A stretch of DNA of 64,000 nt from a virus (Duplodnaviria > Caudoviricetes). The stretch covers positions 352,001 through 416,000 of IMG/VR virus record IMGVR_UViG_3300021431_000075. The stretch is one strand, 5' to 3'. Positions within the stretch are counted from its first letter, which is position 1, and each line of letters opens with the position of its first letter. The notes beneath the pieces were generated by a model. It ran no database searches. It worked only from the letters and a program-made list of their open reading frames with translations, and was not told the DNA's origin. Positions 6,751 to 44,500 of the stretch are shown in pieces. Position numbers and translations under genes: made by a program.

Positions 6751-6954
6751 TTATAGACTGAACAAGATGATTGCGATGATTATCACGCCGATGCTGCAGC
6801 CGATGTAGATGTTCTTCTTTGAAGTGTTCGGTTCTTGCTTGTAGTTTTCAAGAAAGTTTGTTTCGGCGTCTTCATTGTTTTGTTCGATGTCGCTTTCGTC
6901 TATGAACTCGTCATTGTCGTTGATAAGTTCCTCGTTGAATTCTTCTGTCTTCAT
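6751..6954 (-). CDS. Small acidic protein with C-terminal membrane anchor
   Basis: Acidic N-terminus; IYIGCSIGVIIIAIILFSL tail; 4-nt overlap with upstream gene. Confidence 0.7.
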   Translation of the reverse strand: MKTEEFNEELINDNDEFIDESDIEQNNEDAETNFLENYKQEPNTSKKNIYIGCSIGVIIIAIILFSL

Positions 6955-7424
6955 TTTGCTACGAATTTGAGTTTTCTTATGATTTTGTTGAATGATTCGG
7001 TTTTGTTCGGACGTTTGTAGTTCATCTCTTTTGAAATGTTGAACATATAACCGTTAGCCCATCTATGCCTGTTTTCTCGTACATTCCATAAGCAGTCTCT
7101 TAAAACGACAGCAGATAAGTATGAGTCTTTTGGTTGTTTGACCTTGTTCTTGTCAAGAATTGTGTAGTACCAGCCGTTCTTCTGGTCTTGTGAGAAGAAC
7201 AGGCTTTCCTGCATGAGTATCATCTTGTTTGTCTTGTTCTCTGAGAACACGAACGCGATGTGCTTGAACTTCTTGTCTGTGAACAAGGTGTCTCCGTTGA
7301 CATAGTACTTGACTGTGCATACTTTGTCGGTGTGACGCCATACAGACACTGTGTCGATTTTTGCGGCTGATGCCGATAATGTTGCCAGCATGAATACTAA
7401 TGCTGCGATTGCTAAATGTTTCAT
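6951..7424 (-). CDS. Secreted hypothetical protein
   Basis: Signal peptide MKHLAIAALVFMLATLSASA. Start moved to 7424 because a promoter lies at 7468-7477. Confidence 0.75.
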   Translation of the reverse strand: MKHLAIAALVFMLATLSASAAKIDTVSVWRHTDKVCTVKYYVNGDTLFTDKKFKHIAFVFSENKTNKMILMQESLFFSQDQKNGWYYTILDKNKVKQPKDSYLSAVVLRDCLWNVRENRHRWANGYMFNISKEMNYKRPNKTESFNKIIRKLKFVAK

Positions 7425-7467
7425 TGCTTCTTTGTATTTTAGTTGTTTGACAAAATGTTTTTGATAG

Positions 7468-7477
7468 TGCAAATATA
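7468..7477 (-). promoter_or_regulatory. Bacteroidetes -7 element
   Basis: Reverse complement TATATTTGCA. Confidence 0.65.
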
Positions 7478-7576
7478 ATGAATGTTTTTCATTAGACATA
7501 GCATTATTGATTAAAATGTTGTATTTTTAATATTTTTTAGGAAATGATTATTAGATAGGCAGATCTTTGGAAAATA

Positions 7577-7591
7577 GATAAATACAATACA
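7577..7591 (+). promoter_or_regulatory. Late-type promoter GATAAATA
   Basis: GATAAATACAATACA, identical to the 15-mer at 20063. Confidence 0.65.
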
Positions 7592-7632
7592 TGCAATGAT
7601 GCTGTTTTTATATAAAACGATTTTATGTTGTA

Positions 7633-10600
7633 ATGAATATTCTTTTGGAAAAAAACCATGTTCTTGATGAAGGAGTCTTGTTCGAGCAGAATATGAATAA
7701 TTATGCCACTTTGTTCAACAAGGTTAACATCTATTCAAAGCGTGGATATATGGCTTCTCTTAACGAGAGCAATAGCAGGCATTTCAGGTCGAAGTTCGGG
7801 TACAATCCCGATATTCTTTTCAGTGTTGAAGAACGTGAGTCGGTACGTGACTTGTTCTGTCAGATAAGAGCGCATCTTGTCGAGCAGATGAATCGTGAAC
7901 TTGCAGACGCTCAGGCGCAGATGATTTACGAGGGAGTCTGGGACAATATCAAGAGCGGTGTCAAGAAAGGCGTTGATGCTGTCAAGAACAAGCTTGATGC
8001 GATTTCGGAGAAGTACAAGAAAGGAATAGAACTCATCAACAAGATTATCAAAGACGGCGTCAGTTCGGTTAAGGATTTCTTATCGAAGATTGGAAAACTG
8101 TTCTCGACTCTCGGTGATAATTTCGCAGAGGTTGTCGAGAAACTTGGTGGGGGTTCTAAGGATGAAACCGCTGAGGATGATTCTGTTTCCCTGAACATAA
8201 ACAAGGCATATCTTGAAGTTGTTCCTGAAAACCAGAGAACTGTGTTCGGACATGTTATCGAATACATTGTCGAGATGTTCAAGAATGACAAGGACAAGGC
8301 AAAGCAGCTTGTGAACGAGGGCTTTGTTGACGCTGTGGCAAAGAACAAGGTTCTTCAGTTCATTATCGGTCATAGGGAAGGAAAGCAGTGGGGATGGTGG
8401 CATACCATTCTTGTTTCCATTATCGGTTCGTTCATCGTTTCTGTCATTCTTCCGATGTCTTTGTGCCTGTTCGGAATTGGCGGTTCGGCTGCGGCTGTTA
8501 TCTGCACGACTGTTGCCTGTGTGTGGTGCGGGCGCGGTTTGTTCAAGGTTCTTCTCAACAGATATCTGAACAAGGATCCGAAAGAGCGTTTCTTGGACAA
8601 GTGGACTGTTCTTGGCATATTCTTGTCTGTGGTTCCTGTCGTCGTGTTCAGGATTCCGGCGGTTCAGGATTTTATGCATGACTGTATCAAGGGGCTTTTC
8701 GAGTCGCTTGGTCTTGATAAGGCGATTGACAAGATTGAGGATTTTCTTACTTCCATTTATAAGCATTTTGCAGGGAAGAGTGTCGAGGAAGTCGATACTG
8801 TGAAGACCGGCGAATGGATTAAGGAGAGAGTCGAGTCGATTGCGAATGCCGGCGACACACATACTTCATTGATGGGAAGCGGTGGAGCGCATGCGTATAT
8901 TGACAGCCTGTTCAACGGAAAGAGTGATTTGAACTCTTTTACTGGAAAGGTCAGCGAGTTGAAGTCTTGGCTTGAGACTATCGCCGATGCAAAATGGACA
9001 AGTTCTACACAGATGCTGAATCATCTCCCTGAATTGTCAGGAAATGCTCCATTGACTACGGTTCTTGACGGAAACACATTCCAGCATGTTCCGAGAGAGG
9101 CATTGAGCAATGCGATTAAGGAGTTGTCCGGTCAGATGGGAATTCACTGCGAGCTTATCAACGCGTCGAACGATGCATTGAGAGACGCCACTCATAATAT
9201 GGCTGGAACTTCATTCGTTCTGGTTGCTGATGCGAATCCGACTTCGGAGAATGCGGCAATGCTCAATGATTTGATTAGAAAGACTGCGGAAAAGCTGGGT
9301 ATTCATAATGTAACGACATTCGGAAAGATTATGAATAACATTACAGATTTCGAGGAAGTTTTCCATGAGACGATTATCAACAATAAGACCATCCATACGC
9401 TGGTGGATACGATTGCAAGTTGCTTTACTCCGGTGTTCTGTCCGTTCTTTGACGAGAAGAAGTGGGGCGACTACAAGTTGAGTCTCGGTTCCAACGCGTC
9501 AGGTTATTCTGCTTATACGGTTACGAAGGTCGAGCATATGAAGTTCGACAAGGTTGTCGAGCTTGATTCTACGAACATGGCGATTCCTCTGCTTGTGAAG
9601 CATAGCGATGATGTTCTCAAGCAGCAGAGGGATATGCTTGTGAACAGCTATAAGGATGAAGCGAAGAAGACAGACGGCAAGCTTTCCACTGCTGTCAAGA
9701 AGTTCTTCAAGATTGAGACCAAGAAGTACAACGAGAGCACGAATATCGAGAAGCATGACATGGTTGTCATCTATGTTTCCGGGACTGTGAAGTACAGGAC
9801 GAAGGACGGAGAGAGAAAAGAAAAGGAATTGAAGAACGTTCCGGCTGTTGCTCTTGATATGAACACGATGATGTGTGTGGATATTGCGCCGTGGTTCAAA
9901 AAGCGCAGGAAAGTTCCATATTTTATGAAAGGCTTGTTCAGCAGGCTTGATTTCATGCCTGTTAAGAAAGATGACAACGACACGAAGGAGTTCATCCATA
10001 ATATGCTTGAAAAGACGATGGAGACCGCTTGTAAGTTCTGTGTTACATACGGTGTCGGTGGCTATTATGTCGAGTATTCGAAAGAGGAAAAGAAGTATGT
10101 TCCTGTTGATAAGAAGAACGCGGATGTCAATTATTTCGACATTGGCAATCTCACGGTGAACGAGCTGTGCGATGTCATTAACGAGGTTGATAATGCAGCA
10201 TACCAGTTGCTTGATGGAAAGTACGGCAAGAGAGTGATAATGAAGACCGGCAAGGACGGAAAGATGACGAAGAAAACTGGAGAGAACAATAACCTTATCG
10301 AGAAGAAGAGATATTCGAAGAAAGACGGAAAGTTCGTCGAGGATAAGAACGGCAAGTATGACTATATAGACGCGGTTGTGATTCCGTATATCTCAAGAAA
10401 GAAGTCGGCTGTTTATAAGGAACTTGCTGCTGACGAGGATGTTGCTGAAATCATCTTGACGAAAGACGGAGACATCGACACTTCTATCATAAATGATAAG
10501 GAGTTGAATCTGAAGCAGTTCCTATATAGACCGGGAAAGACCTTCGGAAAAGAAGACAAGGTCAATCTTGTGAACTCCATCAACAAGTATCTCAAGGGAA

Positions 10601-14742: not shown

Positions 14743-14763
14743 CCACCATTAAAATAGGTTTAG

Positions 14764-15990
14764 ATGAGAACAACAGAAGATTTAAAGTTGATGTTCGAAT
14801 GTGCGATGACAAAGGCAAAGAACTTGTACTACACTACATCCGGACATGGTTCGTCAAGAGATTGCTATATTTCCGGACTATATTCTTTGTATATGAATAT
14901 GTTCGGAAGTTATCCTTATGAGTTTGAGATTTCCCAGTTTGTGTCTGTTCATTCTATTTCATATGAAGAGTTTACGAATGAAGATTACCGATTTGCAAAG
15001 AAGTATCTGTACAAGTACTCGAAGTATGTTGATGTCGATTATATAGCCACGCTTGTCAATATTAAGAATGCAAACAAGGATAACTGCTATTTGATTTCAA
15101 TGTCTGGCATTCATATGATTATCCTTGATGAATATATCGTGTACTGGACAGATGAGAGTTCATTCTCTGTGTTATGTCCGCAATACATGTCAATCGAAGA
15201 TAATATAAAGATAAAATGCAAAGAGATTCATTTTACGAACATACTGTTTACTGGTGATGTATGGAACGGTTGGTTCAAGATAAATGACTATATTGCATAT
15301 AGGAATCTTAAGAGACAGAAGGAGACGCCGTTCTATTATTATATTATTCGTACTGCCAACGGATTCGATACTACGAATATGCATATCAAGGATTATGTGA
15401 ACATAGACATTGACCAGAACTATAATGATGATTTGCCATATGACAAAATAGTGTCGTTCTTGACAAGCAAGGATGAAAGCGGTCTGGTTATTTTGCGCGG
15501 AGTTCCGGGTTCAGGAAAGACATATTTGATACGGCATTTCATCACAAACATCAAGAAAGACTTTATCATTATCAATGAGAGTTGTCTCGAATATATGAAC
15601 GATCCGTCTTTTTTGAAGATATTGATGGACCATCCGGATTCCATTATAATTCTCGAGGATTGTGAGAAGGTTTTGACAGACAGGAACAACGGAAACTATT
15701 TGATTGGGACTTTGCTGAACTTGTCAGACGGCATTATATCTGACACGTTCAATATGAAGTTTATCTGTACGTTCAATGCAGAGATGACGGATATTGACGA
15801 AGCATTGCTTAGGAAAGGAAGGCTTAAGGTCAAGTATGAGTTTGGAAAATTGTCAAAGGAGAAGACGCAGAAACTTGCAGAAAAACTCGGAAAGAATATA
15901 ACGCCGGGAGTTGAGTTGACGCTTGCTGATATATACAACTATGATGACGAGGTTGATTTCGCGACAAAGAAGAAGAAAATCGGTTTCTGA
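14764..15990 (+). CDS. AAA+ ATPase
   Basis: GVPGSGKT Walker A, IIILEDCE Walker B, LLNLSDG, IDEALLRKGR SRH, C-terminal KIGF. Confidence 0.9.
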   Translation: MRTTEDLKLMFECAMTKAKNLYYTTSGHGSSRDCYISGLYSLYMNMFGSYPYEFEISQFVSVHSISYEEFTNEDYRFAKKYLYKYSKYVDVDYIATLVNIKNANKDNCYLISMSGIHMIILDEYIVYWTDESSFSVLCPQYMSIEDNIKIKCKEIHFTNILFTGDVWNGWFKINDYIAYRNLKRQKETPFYYYIIRTANGFDTTNMHIKDYVNIDIDQNYNDDLPYDKIVSFLTSKDESGLVILRGVPGSGKTYLIRHFITNIKKDFIIINESCLEYMNDPSFLKILMDHPDSIIILEDCEKVLTDRNNGNYLIGTLLNLSDGIISDTFNMKFICTFNAEMTDIDEALLRKGRLKVKYEFGKLSKEKTQKLAEKLGKNITPGVELTLADIYNYDDEVDFATKKKKIGF

Positions 15991-18988: not shown

Positions 18989-19807
18989 TTATTTTTTCTT
19001 GATTGTTGTTGTAAGAATGTCCGGGTTGATATGCATCCGTTTGTTTAGAACGTTTGTGTTCTTGTCATAAGGATCATAGTTCGTTCCGATGTATGCCGGT
19101 TGCTCTTTCTGTTCCTGTTCCGCTTTCATTTGCTGGATTCTTGAAGACAACGGCTTGTGTCTCATATTCTTGTACTTTTCTGACGCGCCGTCAAGATGCT
19201 CTTGCGGAAAGTCCATCTGTGGCTGGAAGTCCGAAGCGATGAGTTCCCGCTTTCCGTTTGCATTCACAAGATACACGTCATAGTAGTTGTATGTGAATGA
19301 CATCGAGAACGTGTTGAAATTTCCGACAGTCTGGTTGTACTGGAGATTCAGGTCGCTGATTGACGACGGTGTGAGTTCCTTGTACACATACTCCATCATG
19401 GCAAATCCGCCGTCGTTCAGAAGGCATATTTTTATCGGGTTCATATACAGGTACTTCGCCGTTTCTCCGAGTGCAAGGAATCTCCTGTACTGGTCCCTCA
19501 TGACGAAGTATGATATGTATGATTCTGTTGTTTTGATTGTCAGGTTCAATTGCTTTGAAACAATCTGGTCGAATGCCTTCCCTATTCTTTTCTGCACGTT
19601 ATATAGCTGGATGTCTTGTGCCGGGTTTGACGCGCTGAGACCCGGAAAGTTCACGGAAGAAATCTGCGAGTTGATGAAGTCTTCGACCGTGTTGTATGGA
19701 AGAAACATCCTGTGTAGCACGCTGAGCCATGTGTCCACCACTTCCGGATAGAACCAGTTCAGGTCTGTTGTTATGACAAAGTTTTGTTGCAGGTTGTTAA
19801 GAAGCAT
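18989..19807 (-). CDS. Tail tube-like / baseplate tube-initiator protein (T4 gp19/gp48/gp54 fold)
   Basis: SSVNFPG, LNLTIK, PSSISDLNLQY...FSMSFTYNYY resembles the tube fold; late promoter upstream. Confidence 0.6.
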   Translation of the reverse strand: MLLNNLQQNFVITTDLNWFYPEVVDTWLSVLHRMFLPYNTVEDFINSQISSVNFPGLSASNPAQDIQLYNVQKRIGKAFDQIVSKQLNLTIKTTESYISYFVMRDQYRRFLALGETAKYLYMNPIKICLLNDGGFAMMEYVYKELTPSSISDLNLQYNQTVGNFNTFSMSFTYNYYDVYLVNANGKRELIASDFQPQMDFPQEHLDGASEKYKNMRHKPLSSRIQQMKAEQEQKEQPAYIGTNYDPYDKNTNVLNKRMHINPDILTTTIKKK

Positions 19808-19843
19808 AATGTTGTTTTCCGGTACCGGACTTCGGCTTTTTTA

Positions 19844-19851
19844 TATTTATT
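19844..19851 (-). promoter_or_regulatory. Late-type promoter AATAAATA
   Basis: TATTTATT on + strand upstream of 19807. Confidence 0.6.
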
Positions 19852-19874
19852 TTTTGCTGAATCTATTTTGGAAA

Positions 19875-19892
19875 GATAAATATCTTATAATA
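19875..19892 (+). promoter_or_regulatory. Late-type promoter, extended form
   Basis: GATAAATATCTTATAATA. Confidence 0.65.
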
Positions 19893-20062
19893 TAAAAAGC
19901 AAATCGTATGGATGAAATAATCATCTTCATTTGCTGGTAAATGATGAAATTGGCTTGGGTTGATAGAAGAAAATTGAAATTAAATTCAGTTGTCGTTCTT
20001 ATGAAGCCGTTTAGGTAACAAACGAAAACAATTTGTTGAAATGATTCGACAAGCCATTTTAA

Positions 20063-22005: not shown

Positions 22006-23559
22006 ATGTTTAGGGTTTTTACAGCATTCAGTGGATATGATTCCCAGTGTCTTGCGCTTAAGAGATTGCAGGAACGGTTTCCGGACTTCAAGTTTGAGCT
22101 TGTCGGGTGGTCTGAAATTGAGAAGTCTGCGATAGAGGCGCATAACATCTTGTTTCCGGAATACAAGGATAAGAACTATGGAGACATTTCAAAGATAGAC
22201 TGGAATGACGTTCCGAACTTTGACATGTTGACCTATAGTTCTCCGTGCTTTGTTGCAGGGACTAAGGTGGTGACAAGCGCAGGTCTTAAGAACATAGAAG
22301 ATGTGATAGAAGATGACTATGTTGCTACTCATACCGGTCAGTATAGAAAAGTGCTGAAATGTATGGAGCATGAGCATATCGGTTCATTGTATAGGGTTGA
22401 ACTGGAAAGTGGCAACAGTGTCATTTGTACTCCGAATCATCCATTCTATTGTGTTTCAAAGAATGACAAGAAGAATGCTATTTGGGTTGAGGCACAGAAT
22501 CTTTCCGTTGATGAGCATCTATGTAAGCTTGTTGTTGATTTTAATACAGATGGGATGACTCCTGTATTTGACAACAAGATTATAAAAGATATAGAAGTGT
22601 ATGATAATCAGAGAGATATAGTTTACAATTTGCAAGTTGATGAATATGAGTCATACATTGCAAACGGAATCTGTGTTCATAATTGCACAGACTTTTCAAT
22701 AGCAGGTCATCAGGCTGGCGGAGAAGAAGGTTCTGGGACACGTTCATCCCTGTTGTGGGAGTGCGAGAATGCAATATCTATAAAGAGACCGAAGTATTTG
22801 ATTCTTGAGAATGTGACAGCTCTTGTGAACAGGAAGAACAAGGATGTGTTCTTTAAGTGGATTTCACGAATCTCGAAGTATGGTTATGTGTCATTCTGGA
22901 AGATATTGAATGCAAGTTGGTACGGGATACCTCAGAATAGGGATCGCTTGTTTCTGGTTTCCGTGCTGAAAGAGAATCCGGAAGATATTGTGAGTTATAA
23001 TTTCCCCAATCCGTTCATTAGAGGATGTTCGATAAGTGATTTTTTGAGCAAGGAAGTTGATAAGTCATACTATATTGATTCAGAAGCGGTTAATAAGTGG
23101 ATTGTTGAGAATGAAAATAAAATAAAGGCTTGTATTTCAGAAAAGAATCATATAGATATAAATAGTATTGTCATGGATGATTCTTGCATATATGAGTTTG
23201 ATACAGATACAGAAGAAAAACGCGATAACGATATATCAATGGAAGATAAAGATAACTGCTTGTTTGGCGAGCAGGAACAAGATTGTTGTCTTGTGAAAGA
23301 TCCCAAGCAGGCGACTAAGGACAAGAAGCAGAAGCGTGAACGGAAGAAGAAGATTCGGAATGATGTTAGTAAGTATGAGGGATGCCATATCGTAGATAGA
23401 ATTCCGACTCCGACATGTACAGGAAATGTGGCTCCTACTTTGATGGCGTCAAGTTATGAAGCCGCTGATTATAAGAATTTTTATAGTGTTGGTCATTTTC
23501 CGAAGCTCGGCATTCTTGAGGTTTGGGAACGAGACGGTGTCGAAAAGAAAAATAATTAA
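22006..23559 (+). CDS. C5 DNA cytosine methyltransferase, N-terminal subunit (motifs I-VIII plus TRD), intein-containing
   Basis: FTAFSGYDSQ (I), SSP-[intein]-CTDFS (IV), ILENV (VI), PQNRDR (VIII); motifs IX-X absent. Confidence 0.9.
   Translation: MFRVFTAFSGYDSQCLALKRLQERFPDFKFELVGWSEIEKSAIEAHNILFPEYKDKNYGDISKIDWNDVPNFDMLTYSSPCFVAGTKVVTSAGLKNIEDVIEDDYVATHTGQYRKVLKCMEHEHIGSLYRVELESGNSVICTPNHPFYCVSKNDKKNAIWVEAQNLSVDEHLCKLVVDFNTDGMTPVFDNKIIKDIEVYDNQRDIVYNLQVDEYESYIANGICVHNCTDFSIAGHQAGGEEGSGTRSSLLWECENAISIKRPKYLILENVTALVNRKNKDVFFKWISRISKYGYVSFWKILNASWYGIPQNRDRLFLVSVLKENPEDIVSYNFPNPFIRGCSISDFLSKEVDKSYYIDSEAVNKWIVENENKIKACISEKNHIDINSIVMDDSCIYEFDTDTEEKRDNDISMEDKDNCLFGEQEQDCCLVKDPKQATKDKKQKRERKKKIRNDVSKYEGCHIVDRIPTPTCTGNVAPTLMASSYEAADYKNFYSVGHFPKLGILEVWERDGVEKKNN
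22246..22683 (+). mobile_element. Mini-intein (146 aa, no homing endonuclease)
   Basis: Starts CFVAGTKV; block B CTPNHPF; block F VYNLQV; ends CVHN followed by Cys+1. Confidence 0.93.
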
Positions 23560-28539: not shown

Positions 28540-28597
28540 CAAAAGTGGACTTTTTGAGATTGATTTGAATCAATGTATTCTTAATGAGTCCACTTTG
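28540..28597. repeat. Long interrupted inverted repeat
   Basis: caaaagtggact ... ttgatt-tg-aatcaa ... agtccactttg. Confidence 0.65.
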
Positions 28598-28851
28598 TGT
28601 TTTTGAAAGAATAAATCTGTGCATTTTCAACATTTATTGTATAATTTTCATGGTTTTGTGACAGTTTAATAAAAGACGGTTTTTGAATTCAATGAAAAAA
28701 ACTTTTCAAGTATTTTGAGTTTTTAATATTTTTTGGGATTGTATGAAAATTATTCAGCATGGATGTAAAGATTACATGTTTATGTTCTTGAAAATTGAGT
28801 TTTCAAACATCTTCAAAAGAGAGTATTTTGAAAAATTTAGCGCTTGGAACA

Positions 28852-28917: not shown

Positions 28918-29550
28918 ATGAAAGAAACTAATTTCTGTTTAGACAGTGCAACTCCGATTATTTACAAAGAGAATATTGACGGAGAAGTCATTATAGAACC
29001 GATAAGCAATGCATATGAAAAGCATCAGGATGATGTTATTTACGTATGCGTGCATAAGTTCAATGAAACAGAGCATACTACCAGCATCGTTACTTGGGAA
29101 GAAGCGAAATTATGTCATACAGAGAGTATAAAGGAAGTTGTCATCTATCTACAGCCGGATGACTTTATGAACACGACGCTTGAAAGTGACAATGTGATTC
29201 GTGTTACTCCCAACCATGTGTTTCCGGTGTTGAAGCCAACGGGTCTGAAGAACATTGAGAGTTATCTTATTCAGACAGGAGATTTGATTCCGTTCGACAA
29301 GGGAAGAGAACTTGAAGAAGGTGTTGATGCAGAAGGATTGACAAACGAGTATATGCTTGAGAACAATTCCGTCCAGCGTCTTTATTATAGACATGTTATG
29401 AAAGTTTCGATTGACGAGTATGATGAGACCAAGGAAAACGGTTTTTCAAAAGATTTCTATGGTATCAAAATTACTGCAAAGGATGCGCCAAGCAAATACT
29501 TTATGATTTGTAATGGTGCTATCAGCCATGATTCTTCAGTAGAATACTAA
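28918..29550 (+). CDS. Free-standing intein-like (Hint domain) protein
   Basis: MKETNF-CLDSATPII (block A), IRVTPNHVFP (block B), YFMICNGAISHD-SSVEY (block G). Confidence 0.8.
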   Translation: MKETNFCLDSATPIIYKENIDGEVIIEPISNAYEKHQDDVIYVCVHKFNETEHTTSIVTWEEAKLCHTESIKEVVIYLQPDDFMNTTLESDNVIRVTPNHVFPVLKPTGLKNIESYLIQTGDLIPFDKGRELEEGVDAEGLTNEYMLENNSVQRLYYRHVMKVSIDEYDETKENGFSKDFYGIKITAKDAPSKYFMICNGAISHDSSVEY

Positions 29551-29635
29551 TTTTTGTTAATAATATATCGGCAATATGCTTGTTGCATGGAGTATGCTGT
29601 GTATTTGCCGGTATTCTAAATTTATACTTATAACA

Positions 29636-32200
29636 ATGAATGTAGAGAAAATGGACGGCACTATACAGCCGTTTAAATTTGACAAGATTGTGCGTGTTGT
29701 TCAGCGTGTTTTTGAGAGCAAGCCTGTGTGTGGTAAGGTTCCCGATAAGCTGATTGATGGTCTCAGGAAGTATTTTGAGAACTTTGTTTCCAAGAGTGAC
29801 AAGAAGGATTTGAACTATGCTTTACCTGTCGAGGACATACAGAACACGATTCGCGACTTTCTTATCATGAATAACCAGCCTATTGCTGTTGATAGTTTTA
29901 TTACATACAGGAATAAGAAGAACGAGATTCGTGAAAAGAAGTCATGGTTGACAAAAGATGTTGCAAGCAAGTTGAACGGAAAGAACCCTGAGAATCAGAA
30001 CGCCAATGTTGACGAGTCTTCTTTTGGCGGAAGAATGGGCGAAGCGACAAGAGTTGTGACGAAGGATTATGCTCTTAAGTTTTGTATGTCCAAGAAGTCA
30101 AGACACAATCATGAGAAGAATTTCATCTATATTCATGACCTTGATAGTTATGCTGTTGGAGAGCATAACTGCCTGAGTTGTCCGCTTGACAATCTTCTGA
30201 CCAAGGGTTTCAATACTCGTCAGACAGATGTTCGAAGCGCGAAGAGCGTGAACACTGCAAGTCAGTTAACGGCAGTCATATTCCAGATTCAGTCATTGCA
30301 GCAGTTTGGCGGCGTGTCGGCAACACATATTGACTGGACGATGGTTCCGTTCATCAGACGTTCGTTCGAAAAGCATTATATCTCGAACTGGATTGAAGAT
30401 TTGCAAGAGTTTGCCGAACTTGATATAGAGGACATGTCTTATGAGGATTTCAACAATTGGGTTGAGAAGAAAACAACTGAATTCTTTATAGAGACTGGTT
30501 ATGAAGATTCTGATTTCAAGTTTTCAAATAAGGAAAAGTTTGATAAGAAATTGTATCAGAAGGCTTTGAAGGAGACAAGAGATGAGACGTATCAGGCTGT
30601 CGAGGGTATGTATCATAATCTGAATACGCTTCAGAGTCGTAGCGGAAACCAGTTGCCGTTCTCATCCCTGAACTACGGAACTTGTACAGAGCGCGAGGGA
30701 CGTATGTTCACGAAGGCTTTGCTTGAAGTTTCATATCGCGGTCTTGGAAAGTTCGGCAAGACTTCCATTTTTCCTTGCGGCATTTTCCAGTACAAGAAAG
30801 GCATCAATGACAAGCCGGGCACAATCAACTATGATTTGAAGCTGCTTGCGTTAAAGTCAACATCAAAGAGACTTTATCCTAACTATGCGAACTGCGACTG
30901 GAGCAATCAGGTTGCATGGAAGAAACTTGACAACAAGGTCAAGCAGGGTGTTATAGATGAACTTACTGATGACGAGAGAAAGATTCTTGTTGAGCGTGTT
31001 AAAGACAATGGTGAACTTGCATATCATTTGAGTTTGAATGTTGTCAATGACGAACTTGTTCTTGACGAGCGAGAGAAACCGGAAGAGATGTTCTCTACGA
31101 TGGGTTGCCGCACAGTGAACGGTTTTGATGTCAATTTTGAGAACTCGTATAGGAACAATGTGATGCAGGTTATCAAGGACGGTACCTTGTATGATGATAT
31201 GACTTCGGGAGTCCAGAAGGACGGTCGTGGAAACATTTGTCCAGCCACGATTATTCTTCCGAAGATTGCCATGCTTGCAAAGAAACAAGAGGAAGAGTGT
31301 TGCACAGACGGAGAGAATCCATCAAGTGAAGATATTATCAACAGGTTCTTCTGCATATTGAAGAAGAAGATTAACGAGTCTAAAGATTCATTGATTGAGC
31401 GATTCAGATATGTGACTTCACAGCCTGCTGCATCAGCGAAGTTTATGTATGAGAACCATACGATGAGCGGTTATGTCGAGAGTGAGGGAATCGTGTCCGC
31501 ATTGAGGCATGGAACTTTGACAATCGGTCAGATAGGTATTGCAGAGACTGTTTATATTCTTACTGGTGATTATCATACAACACCTGCGGGAATGGAAGTT
31601 GCAAAAAAGATTGAGCAGTTGTTCTTGGATAAGTGCAATCAGTTCAAGAAAGAGACCAATCTTAATTTCGGTGTTTACTACACGCCGGCAGAAAGTCTTT
31701 GCTATACTGCTTTTAAGAAGTTCAAGGCAGAGTATGGTGATATGGAAGGTGTTACTTACTTTATCAATGACAAAGGCGAGCGCGAAGACAAGATGTACTT
31801 CACGAACAGTATCCATGTGCCGGTATATCTGCATATGACACCGTTTGAGAAAATTGACATCGAGAAGCAGCTGACGGGTTATAGCAATGCAGGATGCATC
31901 ACTTATATTGAAGTCGATCATGATGTTGTTCATAATATCAAGGCGCTTGAGGACTATGTTGATTATGCAATGGATAGTGATATTCCGTATTTTGCAATTA
32001 ACTGTCCGTCAGATACTTGTACGAATTGTGGTTATCAGGGAAACATTGCAGACAAGTGTCCGGTTTGCGGAAGCGATGAAATCGAAAGATTGCGTCGAGT
32101 TACCGGCTATTTGACTGGTGACTATCACACCGCATTCAATGAGGGAAAGCAGTGTGAGACTGATGACAGAGTAAAACATAAGAAGGAAGTTAATCTTTGA
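29636..32200 (+). CDS. nrdD: Anaerobic (class III) ribonucleotide reductase
   Basis: ATP cone, IYIHDLD, HNCL, MGCRT, GRGNI, TPAESL, CTNCG/CPVCG, RRVTGYL. Confidence 0.97.
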   Translation: MNVEKMDGTIQPFKFDKIVRVVQRVFESKPVCGKVPDKLIDGLRKYFENFVSKSDKKDLNYALPVEDIQNTIRDFLIMNNQPIAVDSFITYRNKKNEIREKKSWLTKDVASKLNGKNPENQNANVDESSFGGRMGEATRVVTKDYALKFCMSKKSRHNHEKNFIYIHDLDSYAVGEHNCLSCPLDNLLTKGFNTRQTDVRSAKSVNTASQLTAVIFQIQSLQQFGGVSATHIDWTMVPFIRRSFEKHYISNWIEDLQEFAELDIEDMSYEDFNNWVEKKTTEFFIETGYEDSDFKFSNKEKFDKKLYQKALKETRDETYQAVEGMYHNLNTLQSRSGNQLPFSSLNYGTCTEREGRMFTKALLEVSYRGLGKFGKTSIFPCGIFQYKKGINDKPGTINYDLKLLALKSTSKRLYPNYANCDWSNQVAWKKLDNKVKQGVIDELTDDERKILVERVKDNGELAYHLSLNVVNDELVLDEREKPEEMFSTMGCRTVNGFDVNFENSYRNNVMQVIKDGTLYDDMTSGVQKDGRGNICPATIILPKIAMLAKKQEEECCTDGENPSSEDIINRFFCILKKKINESKDSLIERFRYVTSQPAASAKFMYENHTMSGYVESEGIVSALRHGTLTIGQIGIAETVYILTGDYHTTPAGMEVAKKIEQLFLDKCNQFKKETNLNFGVYYTPAESLCYTAFKKFKAEYGDMEGVTYFINDKGEREDKMYFTNSIHVPVYLHMTPFEKIDIEKQLTGYSNAGCITYIEVDHDVVHNIKALEDYVDYAMDSDIPYFAINCPSDTCTNCGYQGNIADKCPVCGSDEIERLRRVTGYLTGDYHTAFNEGKQCETDDRVKHKKEVNL

Positions 32201-32208
32201 TTTTTATT

Positions 32209-32721
32209 ATGAACGTGTTGACATTGACCACTCCGGATGTAGAGAACGGTTACGGAAACCGAGTCACTCTATGGGTTGCTGGTTGCACCCACAAGTGTCC
32301 AGAATGCCATAACAAGCACACATGGGCATATAATCAGGGTGTTCCTATTGACAATCCGGAAGTTTATGATAAGATATATGAAGAGTCGAACCATGATTAT
32401 ATTCAGGGCTTGACGCTGTCTGGTGGAGATCCTCTGGACCAGAGTGATGAGTCTATCAACAAGCTGATTGATTTCATCATAAAGTACAAGTATGATTTTC
32501 CAGATAAGGACATCTGGGTATATACAGGATGTATATATGAAGACTTGCTGAAGCGGGATTGTGTTGTTCAGTTGCTTTCATTATGCGATGTTCTTGTTGA
32601 TGGAACGTTTGATAAGCGCTGTTTCAAACTTGACTTGGCATTCCGCGGAAGCACGAATCAGAGAATCATAGATTTGAACAAGACATCCGGAACAAACATA
32701 GTTGAAATTGAAGTTGATTGA
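32209..32721 (+). CDS. nrdG: NrdD activating radical-SAM enzyme
   Basis: GCTHKCPECHN, LSGGDP, FRGSTNQR. Confidence 0.96.
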   Translation: MNVLTLTTPDVENGYGNRVTLWVAGCTHKCPECHNKHTWAYNQGVPIDNPEVYDKIYEESNHDYIQGLTLSGGDPLDQSDESINKLIDFIIKYKYDFPDKDIWVYTGCIYEDLLKRDCVVQLLSLCDVLVDGTFDKRCFKLDLAFRGSTNQRIIDLNKTSGTNIVEIEVD

Positions 32722-34414: not shown

Positions 34415-35269
34415 ATGGAGACTATTGCAGACAAGATGAAAGGCATCCAGAAGAAGTTTGATTATACTCTTCCAAAGAAGGCGTATACGATGATTATGCT
34501 TGATGGAAAGAACTTCTCCCGGAAAGTCAAGAAGCGTTTTAAAAGACCGTTCGACCCAGTATTCGTCAAGTTGATGGATGATACTGCGGCATTCTTGTGC
34601 AAGGAATTGCAGGGGGCGAAGTTCGCGTTTGTCCAGAGCGATGAGATTTCAATAGTCATTACGGATTTTGAAGCAGAGGAGTGTTCGTCATTCTTTGATA
34701 ATAGAATTTGCAAGTTGCAGTCTATTAGCGCGTCTCTTGCAACATCTTTCTTCAATAGGGAAGTTGTAAATAATATCATAGCAGATTGTTCAGACATGGC
34801 TGAGATTGCAAAGCGTGTTTCAACAGAGCCGCTGTACCAGTTTGATGCAAAGGCTTGGTCTATCCCTGCTGATGACTTCAATGATATGTTTTGTTGGTTC
34901 CTTTTTAGACAGAATGACTGCATCCGGAATTCAAAGCAGCAGGTCGCACAGACATATCTTTCTCACAAGAGTCTTGTGAGAAAGAATACGGATGAGCAGA
35001 TACAGTTATTGAAAGATGAACGCGATATTGACTGGAACAATGACTTTGAGGACAATGTCAAGTATGGTCGGTTCATATACAAGGAAAGCGTATTTCAGAC
35101 AACAGTCGTAAACGGTCAAGAAATTGATTTTAATCGTTCAGTTTGGGTATCGCATCCGGCATTCAAGTTGAACAGCTATGAAGGAAGGAGAAAGTTCATA
35201 TCACTTGGAATCGTTCCGATGACAGAAACAGCATTAGAACTTGAAAATAGTAGAAATGTAGAAAATTAG
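34415..35269 (+). CDS. thg1: tRNA(His) guanylyltransferase-like (Thg1/TLP) 3'-5' polymerase
   Basis: LDGKNFS, FVQSDEIS, RICKLQS, FDAK, RQNDCIRNS. Confidence 0.92.
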   Translation: METIADKMKGIQKKFDYTLPKKAYTMIMLDGKNFSRKVKKRFKRPFDPVFVKLMDDTAAFLCKELQGAKFAFVQSDEISIVITDFEAEECSSFFDNRICKLQSISASLATSFFNREVVNNIIADCSDMAEIAKRVSTEPLYQFDAKAWSIPADDFNDMFCWFLFRQNDCIRNSKQQVAQTYLSHKSLVRKNTDEQIQLLKDERDIDWNNDFEDNVKYGRFIYKESVFQTTVVNGQEIDFNRSVWVSHPAFKLNSYEGRRKFISLGIVPMTETALELENSRNVEN

Positions 35270-41500: not shown

Positions 41501-44500
41501 ATGAGTTCTTTTATAATATATGAAACGCCTGCAAGAAGAACAGCGCTCAAACCTATTGCAACGGCACCTTTGATGACTTCGTTCTTCTTAAGAACTTTTC
41601 CTGTCAGAGCGACAATCGCTCCCATTCCGGCAATGAGTGCTGCAACCACTATGCTTCCGTTCTTTGCCGGTTCCCATTGCTCGCCAATAGGGATAATCAG
41701 ATGCGTTATGATGGCGCTTGTCGCGACAAGCATGATGCCTATTGCTGCAAGCGTGAGCGTTCCTGAACGGAGATCGGAGTTCTTGATGAGAGACAGTCCC
41801 CAGACGATAGCAGTCATTACGCTGATGATGCCGAGAACGATTACGGAACCGGCAATGACTTCCTTGCTTGATTGAGCGATAGCAGGGAACAGCACTGCAG
41901 CAATTATAGAGACTGCGGCAAGCATCGTTGTCAGGACGGCAAGAGTCTTATGTGCTTCTTTTAGATTGCGTCTCGGAATGAACTTTGTCATAAAGAGCAC
42001 TATTGAAGAAAGACCGAACACGACTGCCGATACGACAGCAAGTCCTACTGCAACATTTCCCATATTGTCTCCAATCTTAGGAAGGATGAATGCAGCAACA
42101 AGTGATATTGATGCAAACATCGTAGTTAAAGTCAATAGAGTCGAGTTTGCTTCATGTAAGTCTTTTCTTTCTATCTTTTTTGCAAGATGGTACACTATCA
42201 ACCCCATTGTTGCAATGACTAACAATACTACAGTTGACCCTATGATAGCAGTATCTATGTTGTCTGCTATTTTCGGAAGAACTAATGCTGCGATGAGAGA
42301 TATTGACGCGAACATCGTTGTAAGAGTCAATAGTGTCGAGTTTGCTTCTCTCAAGTCTTTCCTTTCTATCTTTTTAGAGAGTCCGTACACCATCAAGCCC
42401 ATTGTGGAGATGACAGACATGACTACTATTTCGCCTAATGCAACATTTCCGAAGTTCTCCCCAATCTTCGGCAGGATGTACGCGCTTAACAGAGAAATCG
42501 CTGCGAACGAAGTCATCAGGATAGCAAGAGTCTTGTTTGCTTCATCAAGTTTCTTGTTATCGAGTTTTGATAGAGATGTGACAATCTTTCCCATTATCAG
42601 CATGACAGCGGAAACGACGGCTCCACCGGCAAGCGCCGGACCGAAGTTCTCTCCAATCTTTGGAAGAATGAACATGCTGATGAGCGAGACTGCTCCGAGA
42701 ATCGCAGTCATCTTTGTCAGGTTGTCAACTGCGTTTGAATAGTCTTTGTTCGACTTTTCAAGAATCTTATTGACTGCAAGCATGGTTCCGCCAACAACAA
42801 GACCGATGACAGTTACTCCAAGAGCAATGTCTGCCAGTTCGTTGTTTTTGGCTATATATGTCATTATGCCGATGGAGATTGACGCAGAGAGAAGAATCGT
42901 TGACATACCCTGCATCGTATTCTTCATTGCTTCGCCGTTTGCTTTGTAGTCTTTGGACATCCAGATGCTTAAAGTCATTACGGAAGCAATCATCGTGAAT
43001 GCTACTGCAATCTTTCCAATAGAGTCCCAGTTGACAAAGTCCATCAGGTTTGCTGCTACTGTCAATAGGACGACATTGCCGGTTAGTAACGTGATGACTT
43101 TTGCAACATCATTCAAACTGCTTGCTCCAGCCTTGATGTCTTTGTCTGATGATGAGACTTTCTTGACAATCGACAGCATTGCTGCAGTGAACAAAGTGAC
43201 CAGACCCATCGAGGCGATGATGTTGTGCGCTCCAAGCAAGGCGATTGATGCACCGATGAGCATGATTGAAGATGTTAAGAGCAAGATTCCCTGACCGAGC
43301 GGCTTCATTGAAGCGGTGAAGATGTCAATCTGCTTGACTCTGTCAGTGTTCATTCCCTTCAGCAGGTTCGTGACAAACGCGTTGATTGATTTTCCGAACT
43401 TCTCGTTTAGAACAGGCTTGAGCATCATCAGTCCAACCGCGCTGGTCGCGCCGAGTGATGACAATGCGCGAACCATCTTGACCACGGATTCCATATTAGA
43501 TTTCGAATCTGGAATCTCGTCTGTCAATGCCTTGAAGAATGCGCCGATTTCGATGCCGTTCTTATATGACAGCATCTTCTTGATTTTCCTGAAGTCTTTT
43601 GCTGTAAATTTAGAAAGGAGACTAATCAGGGATGTCACGGATGCGATGACAGGCGAAGCGATGCTGCCATCCTCGTTGTACATAAGAGGAATCTTGTCAA
43701 GGATACCCTTGAAGAACAATCCGATTTCCTTTCCGTTCTCATATGACATTATCTTCTTTAGTTGCTTGAATGACAGCGGGCTGTTCGGATCCGTGAACCT
43801 TGACATTATATAAATCAGGTTCGACAAACCGTCTATCTGGATTGTTATCTCTTCGTTTGGTATGCTTTCTGCAATCGCGTTGATGAAGTTTCCGATTGCT
43901 CTTCCTATGAGCCTTCCCTTTGCCGGCATGAACAGCGTCCTTATGGACAGTTGCTGTTTTTCTATGATGTCGTTGATTGAAGAGAATGTCTTGATGATTG
44001 AAGAAATCGATGCATTTACAGTTTCTTCGTTAACTGAACGTGCAACGGACTTGCTGAACTTGTCTATGAAACCGGCGATTGAATCAGCAACCTTGACATC
44101 TATGTTCTCAAGATTGTTTATGCTGTCTATTACGTCATTGTTTATTGCTTTGAATGCGGAAAGCAGCATAACAAGCTTGTTTATGTTGTTGATGTCAGAT
44201 TTCTTTATGTCGAATGATTTTGCAAATTCGGTTATCGTTCTTCCAAGTTCCGGATTGAATGCATAACTGAATGCATCAATCGACCAAAGTTTGTCTAAGT
44301 TGACTGATAGTGCATCAATAAGATTTGACATATTAAACAAAGCATCCGGATTCAGTTTCGCGAACTTGTTTATGGAATCTATTATTTTGGTGTCAATCTT
44401 GCCGAGGCTGTTTATCTTGTCAATGACATTGTCATCCAGTGTGTTGAATGATGATAAAGCCGCAATGACCTTGTTGATGTTAGATATGTCTGAGGAGTTG

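Follow-up and report, generated by a model that had tools for sequence, protein, structure and literature searches.

Inteins are generally viewed as selfish inserts, and to our knowledge only a few have been well documented as having turned into working genes (HO, Hedgehog and the bacterial intein-like (BIL) domains), with nucleases or large flanking domains involved. Here, we describe a free-standing gene for a Hint domain at positions 28918..29550 (plus strand) of a 64,000-nucleotide stretch, referred to below as the window, that spans positions 352,001 to 416,000 of the IMG/VR record IMGVR_UViG_3300021431_000075, a 673,114-bp gut megaphage record with terminal repeats. The gene encodes 210 residues followed by a TAA, and lies directly upstream of an nrdD gene that has no intein. 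We consider it reasonably likely that it represents a domesticated (exapted) mini-intein, with a selected function in the Hint domain and with the chemistry of the N-terminal junction retained.

Several described systems resemble the window protein in part. The class 1 mini-inteins, such as those of Pho RadA (4E2T), Pab PolC/PolII (2LCJ) and Pho/Pab CDC21-1 (6RPQ/6RPP), share with it the Hint fold (TM 0.73-0.76), Cys1, the Thr-x-x-His motif and the penultimate His, but they splice real host proteins, whereas the window protein has no host and carries an Asp in place of the terminal Asn and a Gly at position 4 of block F (F:4). Inteins that end in Asp, Gln or Glu are documented and able to splice, and one Gln-ending intein is found in a ribonucleotide reductase (RNR) (PMC4031507). 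Like the window protein, such atypical inteins (Gln-ending CIV RNR, Pab/Mma Pol II; PMC4031507) combine a cyclizable residue other than Asn at the last position (G:7) with a penultimate His and a +1 nucleophile. In contrast to the Hint family described here, in which G:7 drifts further (Glu, Gly, or lost), they stay embedded and splice their hosts.

Other Hint proteins are not primarily splicing elements. BIL domains of types A and B (C. thermocellum, 2LWY) mainly cleave at their ends rather than splice, and type B lacks the block G features; they form part of larger bacterial proteins that are often secreted or variable, whereas the window protein has flanks of 5-6 residues and no flanking domains. 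The HO endonuclease of Saccharomyces cerevisiae (VMA1-type) is a free-standing gene of intein descent with a cellular function and an inactive splicing domain (PMC5056185). HO acts through its LAGLIDADG nuclease and zinc finger, whereas the window protein has no nuclease and keeps most of the splicing residues. The autoprocessing domain of Hedgehog (Hog, 1AT0) has the Hint fold as well and uses a Cys thioester to cleave and transfer its N-terminal part, which makes it a model for any thioester transfer by the window protein; the latter, however, lacks the large N-terminal signalling domain and the sterol-recruiting region of Hedgehog and ends 5 residues past the Hint domain. By analogy, the mode of action of the window protein would be closest to that of a BIL or Hedgehog-type Hint domain, with cleavage or transfer at the ends, or to that of an HO-type domesticated intein.

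Fold and kinship of the free-standing Hint protein

The reading frame starts with a leader of 6 residues, MKETNF, comparable to a micro N-extein (28918..28935), with an A-rich leader and a Met-Lys start that are also found in L004, L005 and L008. It is followed by Cys7 in the position of the Cys1 nucleophile of inteins (28936..28938), which is invariant wherever the N-terminus of a family member is present, free or embedded. Block A reads CLDSATP and block B RVTPNHVFP, the latter including Thr97-Pro-Asn-His100 (B:7 to B:10; 29206..29217), of which the Thr and His are kept except in one lineage (P0016/L008; Ser and Gln). Blocks F and G read DFYGIKIT...KYFMICNGAISHD, and Gly182 (29461..29463) is placed at F:4 by motif alignment (FYG versus YYC, with Cys in the embedded relatives) and not by residue-level structural superposition. 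The modified C-terminal splice junction His204-Asp205/Ser206 (29527..29535), HN/C in embedded forms, retains the penultimate His (G:6) and a +1 nucleophile, and has Asp205 in place of the Asn at G:7. The protein ends with the 5-residue tail SSVEY, a micro C-extein (29533..29547), of which Ser206, Ser207 and Val208 are invariant among members with a His-Asp junction (HD-type). The original prediction had listed these elements (210 aa, MKETNF, Cys1, TPNH, YFMICNGAISH-D, SSVEY and a stop), and all of them read as claimed.

The gene has its own ATG and TAA, with flanks of 6 and 5 residues in place of a host protein, and a TGA is located two codons 5' of the ATG. Its boundaries do not change between genetic codes 11 and 15 (TAG = Gln, the code of Lak phages), and long frames across the whole window are terminated by both TGA and TAA. 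An in-frame TAG is present in 14 of the 49 TAA/TGA-bounded frames of at least 200 codons (e.g., 14743-15990, 19071-19895, 41876-43294), which fits a recoding of TAG like that of Lak phages in at least a portion of the genome. The 673-kb genome carries a single Hint gene and a single nrdD; a search for a second copy of either found none.

The window protein has a Hint fold. An AlphaFold model based on an alignment of 18 sequences, which replaced an earlier model from 4 sequences (pLDDT 52.6), reached a pLDDT of 89.0 and a pTM of 0.84, and Foldseek gave 44 PDB matches for this model at E<=1e-3, every one of them an intein, a BIL domain or a Hedgehog Hint domain. The original prediction would have been contradicted by the absence of a Hint fold, and on this point the structure prediction (pLDDT 89) supports it. 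The intein of Pho RadA ranks first (TM on the target 0.73-0.76), and the BIL structures 2LWY and 6Y75 rank in the middle at 12-14% identity, with no kinship detected at the level of sequence. When the family profile was compared with PDB sequences, the inteins of Pab PolC (E 9e-5) and Pho CDC21-1 (E 2.8e-4) were found; a search of PDB chains and PHROGs with the single Hint protein sequence gave no match. The Pfam model Intein_splicing (PF14890) matches the window protein with 17.2 bits (E 0.0047), below the gathering threshold of 35.8 bits, and gives weak matches in 10 of 18 family members (best E 8e-5). As the protein scores below this threshold and has no host insertion, no C-terminal Asn and not the Asp, Cys or Trp normally found at F:4 (PMC4031507), we file it as intein-derived and not as an intein.

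The nearest sequence relative is an unannotated intein in the NrdD of the Prevotella Lak megaphages (Lak-A1/A2, B1-B9 and C1; MK250015-MK250029). A tblastn search of phage records returned only 15 genomes of these phages, at 33% identity over residues 7-209 (E 7e-23), and the alignment begins precisely at Cys7 of the window protein. Read in place with code 15, the Lak homologue is a true mini-intein of 188 aa inside an nrdD exon, with the junctions ...MSDTVDSLSSC/CFDGDTP...PNGNITHN/CRLKNKIQ.... It directly precedes the Cys of the CR(L/T) motif, which we take to be the thiyl-radical cysteine of class III RNRs, and this +1 Cys aligns by motif with Cys491 of the window NrdD (31106-31108). The original prediction had likened the C-terminal pattern to that of NrdD inteins, and the Lak inteins do end in YFL(M/L)PNGNITHN/C. 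Both proteins belong to the same phage group, are associated with nrdD, lack an endonuclease domain and share the motifs CF[DE]xxTP in block A, RVTP[DN]H.FP in block B, EAYLLQTGD, and NG.I[ST]H in block G. They differ in that the Lak intein has His-Asn, a +1 Cys and Cys at F:4, whereas the window protein has His-Asp, a +1 Ser and Gly at F:4, is about 11 residues longer, and is encoded with a start and a stop of its own ahead of an nrdD that lacks an intein. Measured against the Lak-type NrdD intein family (profile A2), the window protein is homologous over the whole Hint domain (E 7e-23), but the insertion before the CR(L/T) Cys is absent, as the window NrdD reads STMG-C491-RT without an insert.

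The nrdD gene of Lak phages is itself a mosaic of exon-like reading frames and intervening sequences (L002:3204-8760, Lak-A2, MK250019.1; also L001, Lak-B5). From the layout of reading frames in Lak-A2, these intervening sequences carry an HNH ORF (L002 4421-5440) and a GIY-YIG ORF (6784-7683). An origin of the Hint gene in situ from the nrdD position of Lak phages was considered and rejected on the gene order of Lak-A2, in which the DUF4494-like gene is followed by a homologue of window 34415-35269, and nrdD is located about 17 kb further.

The family is small. An exhaustive profile search found 18 matches among 1.84 billion representative proteins, comprising embedded forms with NrdD flanks (P0008, P0009, P0012, P0017, P0020) and free-standing forms (P0001-P0007, P0010, P0011, P0013, P0014, P0016, P0018), which are 198-221 aa long and have a leader of 5-9 residues and a tail of 0-6. 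Among these matches the free-standing form is confined to Lak-like megaphages, and none is a BIL sequence. A search for the family in prokaryote genome bins found no member, and IMG/VR scans with the queries A1, P0005, P0006 and P0011 returned no loci. Other small viral reading frames consisting of a Hint domain only are present in the ESM Atlas and BFVD, and are leads without alignments. In another protein, P0019 (2486 aa), 10 separate stretches match residues 43-83 of the Hint profile, which corresponds to a repeated, beta-hairpin-like unit.

The comparison with NrdD inteins by profile and phylogeny that the original prediction had proposed places the free and embedded forms in a common profile and tree. 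In the maximum-likelihood tree, nine free-standing proteins are split from the embedded Lak-type inteins with 100/100 support, and an AU test does not reject that all free forms arose once (p 0.31). One free-standing protein, P0011 (198 aa, MKTDIYG/C...IIHN-stop), whose cluster has four members of the same length, groups with the embedded forms in the tree. Together with P0031 and P0033, known as proteins only, it forms a variant that ends at His-Asn, has no C-extein and has Gly at F:4; this variant may be an intermediate or a second liberation. By descent, as judged from these alignments, the window protein belongs with the group of Lak NrdD inteins. The Hint gene would descend from, or share an immediate ancestor with, the Lak intein before the CR(L/T) cysteine of NrdD, and in a sister group of Lak-like megaphages the Hint domain has become a gene of its own with a leader of 5-9 residues and a tail of 0-6 residues.

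Locus organization, cassette exchange and selection

The downstream nrdD (29636..32200, plus strand) encodes 854 aa with ATP-cone, NRDD and Gly_radical domains (Pfam NRDD E 1e-131), and is followed by the gene for its radical SAM activase, nrdG (32197..32721, plus strand; Pfam Fer4_12 7.7e-41, PHROG 626), of which the start overlaps the nrdD stop. As had been predicted, nrdD is unbroken at HNCL (residue 177) and at MGC491RT. The synteny proposed as a check also holds: the Hint gene directly precedes an intein-free nrdD-nrdG pair in all four diverged lineages for which DNA is available (the window, L004, L005/L006 and L008), in the order clamp-like, S1-domain, Zn-ribbon, DUF4494-like, 0-2 small ORFs, Hint, nrdD, nrdG. 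The Hint proteins of these lineages have 76% (L004), 47% (L005/L006) and 26% (L008) identity to the window protein.

The conserved layout bears on whether the gene is an independent unit. The Hint ORF could be an exon of a fragmented gene, its flanks being joined by RNA splicing (group I introns) to yield an ordinary intein in a host protein, as might be thought from the Lak nrdD, which is split by introns with HNH and GIY-YIG ORFs, and from the non-coding, well-folding gap of 387 nt upstream of the ORF. Rfam has no intron match at the Hint locus, and this silence is uninformative, as the implied introns of the Lak nrdD control were equally unmatched. In the window, L004, L005 and L008, however, the gene begins with Met-Lys after an A-rich leader with in-frame stops 2-12 codons upstream, and the distances to its neighbors vary, with gaps to nrdD of 85, 89, 122 and 22 nt (window, L004, L005/L006 and L008, respectively) in varying frames, and upstream gaps of 100-387 nt to different neighboring ORFs. 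The gene's own start, the nearby stops and the varying gaps and frames argue against read-through, frameshifting or the joining of exons. Moreover, nrdD is complete from the Met of its ATP-cone and is the sole nrdD in the genome, the DUF4494-like gene runs complete through the end of its profile, and comparison of the upstream gap with the Lak intron regions showed no significant similarity. We therefore consider an exon of a split gene very improbable.

The Hint gene has a history different from that of its downstream neighbors. Between L005 and L008 the backbone genes have 42-56% identity and the Hint proteins 30%, in contrast to 81% for nrdD and 82% for nrdG. Between the window and L005/L008, backbone genes are 46-56% identical and the Hint proteins 47% and 26%, respectively, whereas nrdD reaches 30% and nrdG 41-42% (cassettes compared: L005:3352-5873, L008:7671-10221 and window:29636-32721). 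The ATP-cone that is present in the window NrdD is missing from the L005/L008-type NrdD. In addition, 75 viral loci with an nrdD akin to one or the other NrdD type were scanned with the family profile, and the L008 contig alone was positive, leaving 74 without the family. These identity contrasts and the scan of nrdD loci indicate one or more horizontal swaps of nrdD-nrdG next to a Hint gene that stayed in place upstream. The Hint gene belongs to the phage backbone and not to the reductase cassette. The two NrdD types differ further at residues ~437-520 of the window protein (30940-31200), where insertions of ~45 and ~28 residues flank the MGCRT loop relative to the L005/L008-type.

Exchange of the cassettes at this locus might also have left the Hint ORF behind as the decaying remnant of a replaced, intein-bearing nrdD, and a truncated Hint fragment does exist in L008 (6483-6725). 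The sequences do not show such decay. For the Hint genes of the window and L004, pN is 0.145 and pS 0.677, which gives a ratio of ~0.09 at a dS close to saturation, and the neighboring genes, including nrdD, have ratios of 0.07-0.11 in the same comparison. Between L005 and L006, 6 synonymous changes and 1 non-synonymous change separate the Hint genes. Intact frames of 209-221 aa are kept in every lineage and on many contigs (up to 674 kb and 507 kb), and the more than 60 cluster members are truncated at contig ends alone. The Hint gene is clearly under purifying selection, and of the frameshifts and neutral decay that would have spoken against the original prediction we found neither: the ORFs are intact and pN is far below pS. 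The dead-remnant reading, to which we had given the lowest probability of all, is refuted. Purifying selection keeps the Hint gene as a backbone gene directly upstream of the intein-free nrdD-nrdG.

The fragment in L008, an ORF of 80 aa that shortly precedes the Hint gene there, is a truncated paralogue in which Pro replaces Cys1. It has 40% identity (E 4e-8) to the N-terminus of P0004-type proteins, and looks like a decaying second copy that illustrates a true remnant.

Catalytic residues and the putative function of the Hint domain

Catalytic residues have been lost to different extents across the family. Cys1 is present in the embedded forms, P0011, the window type, P0005 and P0016/L008 (the N-terminus of P0010 is missing). 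The Thr and His at B:7 and B:10 are found in the embedded forms, P0011, the window type, P0010 and P0005, with Ser and Gln in P0016/L008; they are thus kept in five of six deep lineages despite an overall identity of 25-47%. At F:4 the embedded forms have Cys, P0011, the window type, P0010 and P0005 have Gly, and P0016/L008 has Gln or Arg. The dyad G:6-G:7 is HN in the embedded forms and P0011, HD in the window type, HE in P0010 and RG in P0005, and is replaced by a C-terminal KC in P0016/L008. The +1 residue is Cys in the embedded forms and Ser in the window type, P0010 and P0005; P0011 and P0016/L008 have none. Within six HD-type members H204, D205, S206, S207 and V208 are invariant down to 33% identity. 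The N-exteins differ (MKETNF, MKKNF, MYKNSINNQ, MKQNEKK). An acidic insertion common to the free clade, with the pattern ESPLF.EDGEV..E..LE.G..H (in the window a shorter version, GLTNEYMLENNS), occupies the site at which other inteins carry endonuclease domains or linkers.

The original prediction had inferred a domesticated intein, and the Hint fold, the homology to NrdD inteins, the purifying selection, the conserved position and the real translation start of this free-standing gene bear this out. For the chemistry, the pattern of residues suggests the following. The N-terminal junction is probably still reactive in the window lineage: Cys7, Thr97 and His100 would drive an N-S acyl shift, a thioester would form at Phe6-Cys7, and the hexapeptide leader would be shed or transferred, exposing an N-terminal Cys. 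The C-terminal step seems to have been weakened and to have become evolutionarily dispensable; the change of Asn to Asp, combined with that of Cys to Gly at F:4, would slow or uncouple this junction, so that full splicing would be a side reaction at best. The selected function would then be in the Hint domain itself and its clade-specific acidic insertion, and not in the joining of exteins.

Such joining is the basis of another explanation, in which a fully competent mini-intein splices its own micro-exteins, producing the excised Hint domain and an 11-residue MKETNF-SSVEY peptide. The window type does keep Cys1, Thr-x-x-His, the penultimate His, a cyclizable Asp and a +1 Ser, the SSV tail is conserved, and inteins ending in Asp, Gln or Glu are able to splice (PMC4031507). 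However, the N-exteins differ in length and sequence between lineages, the P0011 and P0016 types have no C-extein, the dyad is a dead RG elsewhere, and F:4 is Gly, and therefore no defined ligated peptide is conserved across the family. Ligation of the 11-mer is likewise disfavored as a conserved function because His-Asp is replaced (HE, RG) or lost, because some members have no C-extein and because of the Gly at F:4. Splicing of the micro-exteins as the role of the gene thus strikes us as improbable.

A second explanation abandons catalysis altogether. The Hint domain could be a catalytically irrelevant scaffold, a binding or structural module with NrdD, NrdG or a host factor as partner, in which Cys1, the Thr, the His and His-Asp are kept for packing of the old active-site core and no bond is rearranged. 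The P0016/L008 lineage, which retains the gene without the block B His or the C-terminal dyad, is in line with this, as are the Gly at F:4 in free forms (Gln or Arg in P0016/L008) and the acidic insertion, one of the segments most strongly conserved between the deepest branches of free-standing forms. Yeast HO provides a precedent of a domesticated intein with an inactive splicing domain (PMC5056185). On the other hand, Cys1 is invariant, the block B Thr and His persist in five of six deep lineages at 25-47% identity, and HDSSV is invariant in six HD-type members down to 33% identity; this degree of conservation exceeds what packing alone would predict. A catalysis-independent role of the Hint domain is a serious rival, although on balance we think it rather unlikely.

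Several of these points also weigh against a domesticated mini-intein with retained N-terminal chemistry. In the P0016/L008 lineage, which has 36 cluster members and contigs of up to 507 kb, the gene is kept without the block B Thr and His and without the C-terminal His-Asp, from which it follows that a function common to the whole family would be independent of standard autoprocessing. The catalytic residues in the other lineages could persist for structural reasons, and the unusual Gly at F:4 may impair the N-terminal reaction too. The SSV tail is invariant in HD-type members, which is unexpected for an unimportant tail. Lastly, the link to NrdD is positional only, and the adjoining nrdD has been replaced by unrelated versions.

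That fixed position beside nrdD-nrdG suggests a role linked to anaerobic dNTP synthesis. A more specific version of the domesticated intein would make the Hint protein an active single-turnover device for acyl transfer with a link to the anaerobic synthesis of nucleotides. The Cys7 thioester would either pass the leader to another nucleophile, be it Ser206 of the same protein, a small molecule or another protein (NrdD or NrdG, for instance), or leave an enzyme with an N-terminal Cys. We regard this reading as unlikely.

Flanking elements and implications

Two non-coding elements flank the gene. The spacer between Hint and nrdD (29551..29635, plus strand; 85 nt) contains a hairpin with arms at ~29567-29579 and 29601-29612, and is 95% identical to that of L004, although in the flanking genes 58-68% of the synonymous sites differ between the two. 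The hairpin has a folding energy of -19.1 kcal/mol with a z of only -1.57, and the element is absent in L008, where the gap is 22 nt. A TAAATTT motif is located ~17 nt ahead of the nrdD ATG. The spacer may be a promoter or regulatory element. Upstream, after the DUF4494-like gene, a terminator-like hairpin (AAAGTGGACT ... AGTCCACTTT plus a T-run; 28542..28605, plus strand) is conserved in L004 and is the main contributor to the folding of the 387-nt gap (z -3.16), so that the Hint gene probably opens a new transcription unit. The same hairpin accounts for a weak Rfam match to mir-2797 (E 0.37). A scan of the locus for sigma-70 promoters and terminators gave no signal above shuffled sequences.

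Elsewhere in the window, a canonical class 1 mini-intein of 147 aa (22246-22686, in the ORF 22006-23559) with Cys1, TPNH and ...GICVHN/C interrupts a C5 DNA methyltransferase between the Pro and Cys of its SSPC motif. Kinship of the Hint gene with this intein was considered and rejected, as the similarity is limited to block B.

Full-text literature searches yielded no description of a free-standing or domesticated intein beside nrdD. Stand-alone 'Intein_splicing' ORFs between nrdD fragments were reported, without analysis, for Jug phages (PMC12880540). Such ORFs near fragmented phage RNR genes are not automatically parts of a broken gene (cf. PMC12880540).

The locus is a rare case in which a molecular parasite has been retained as a gene of its own, and both states occur in one phage group, embedded in the NrdD of Lak phages and free-standing in their relatives, which makes the evolutionary argument strong and unusually clear-cut. 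A Hint domain that is minimal and occurs in nature without exteins, with a putative thioester at Cys1, could also be of interest to protein engineers. If the acyl-transfer reading were true, intein chemistry would have been recruited for a new function in trans. The graded loss of catalytic residues across the lineages provides a natural series on how intein chemistry is reused after domestication.

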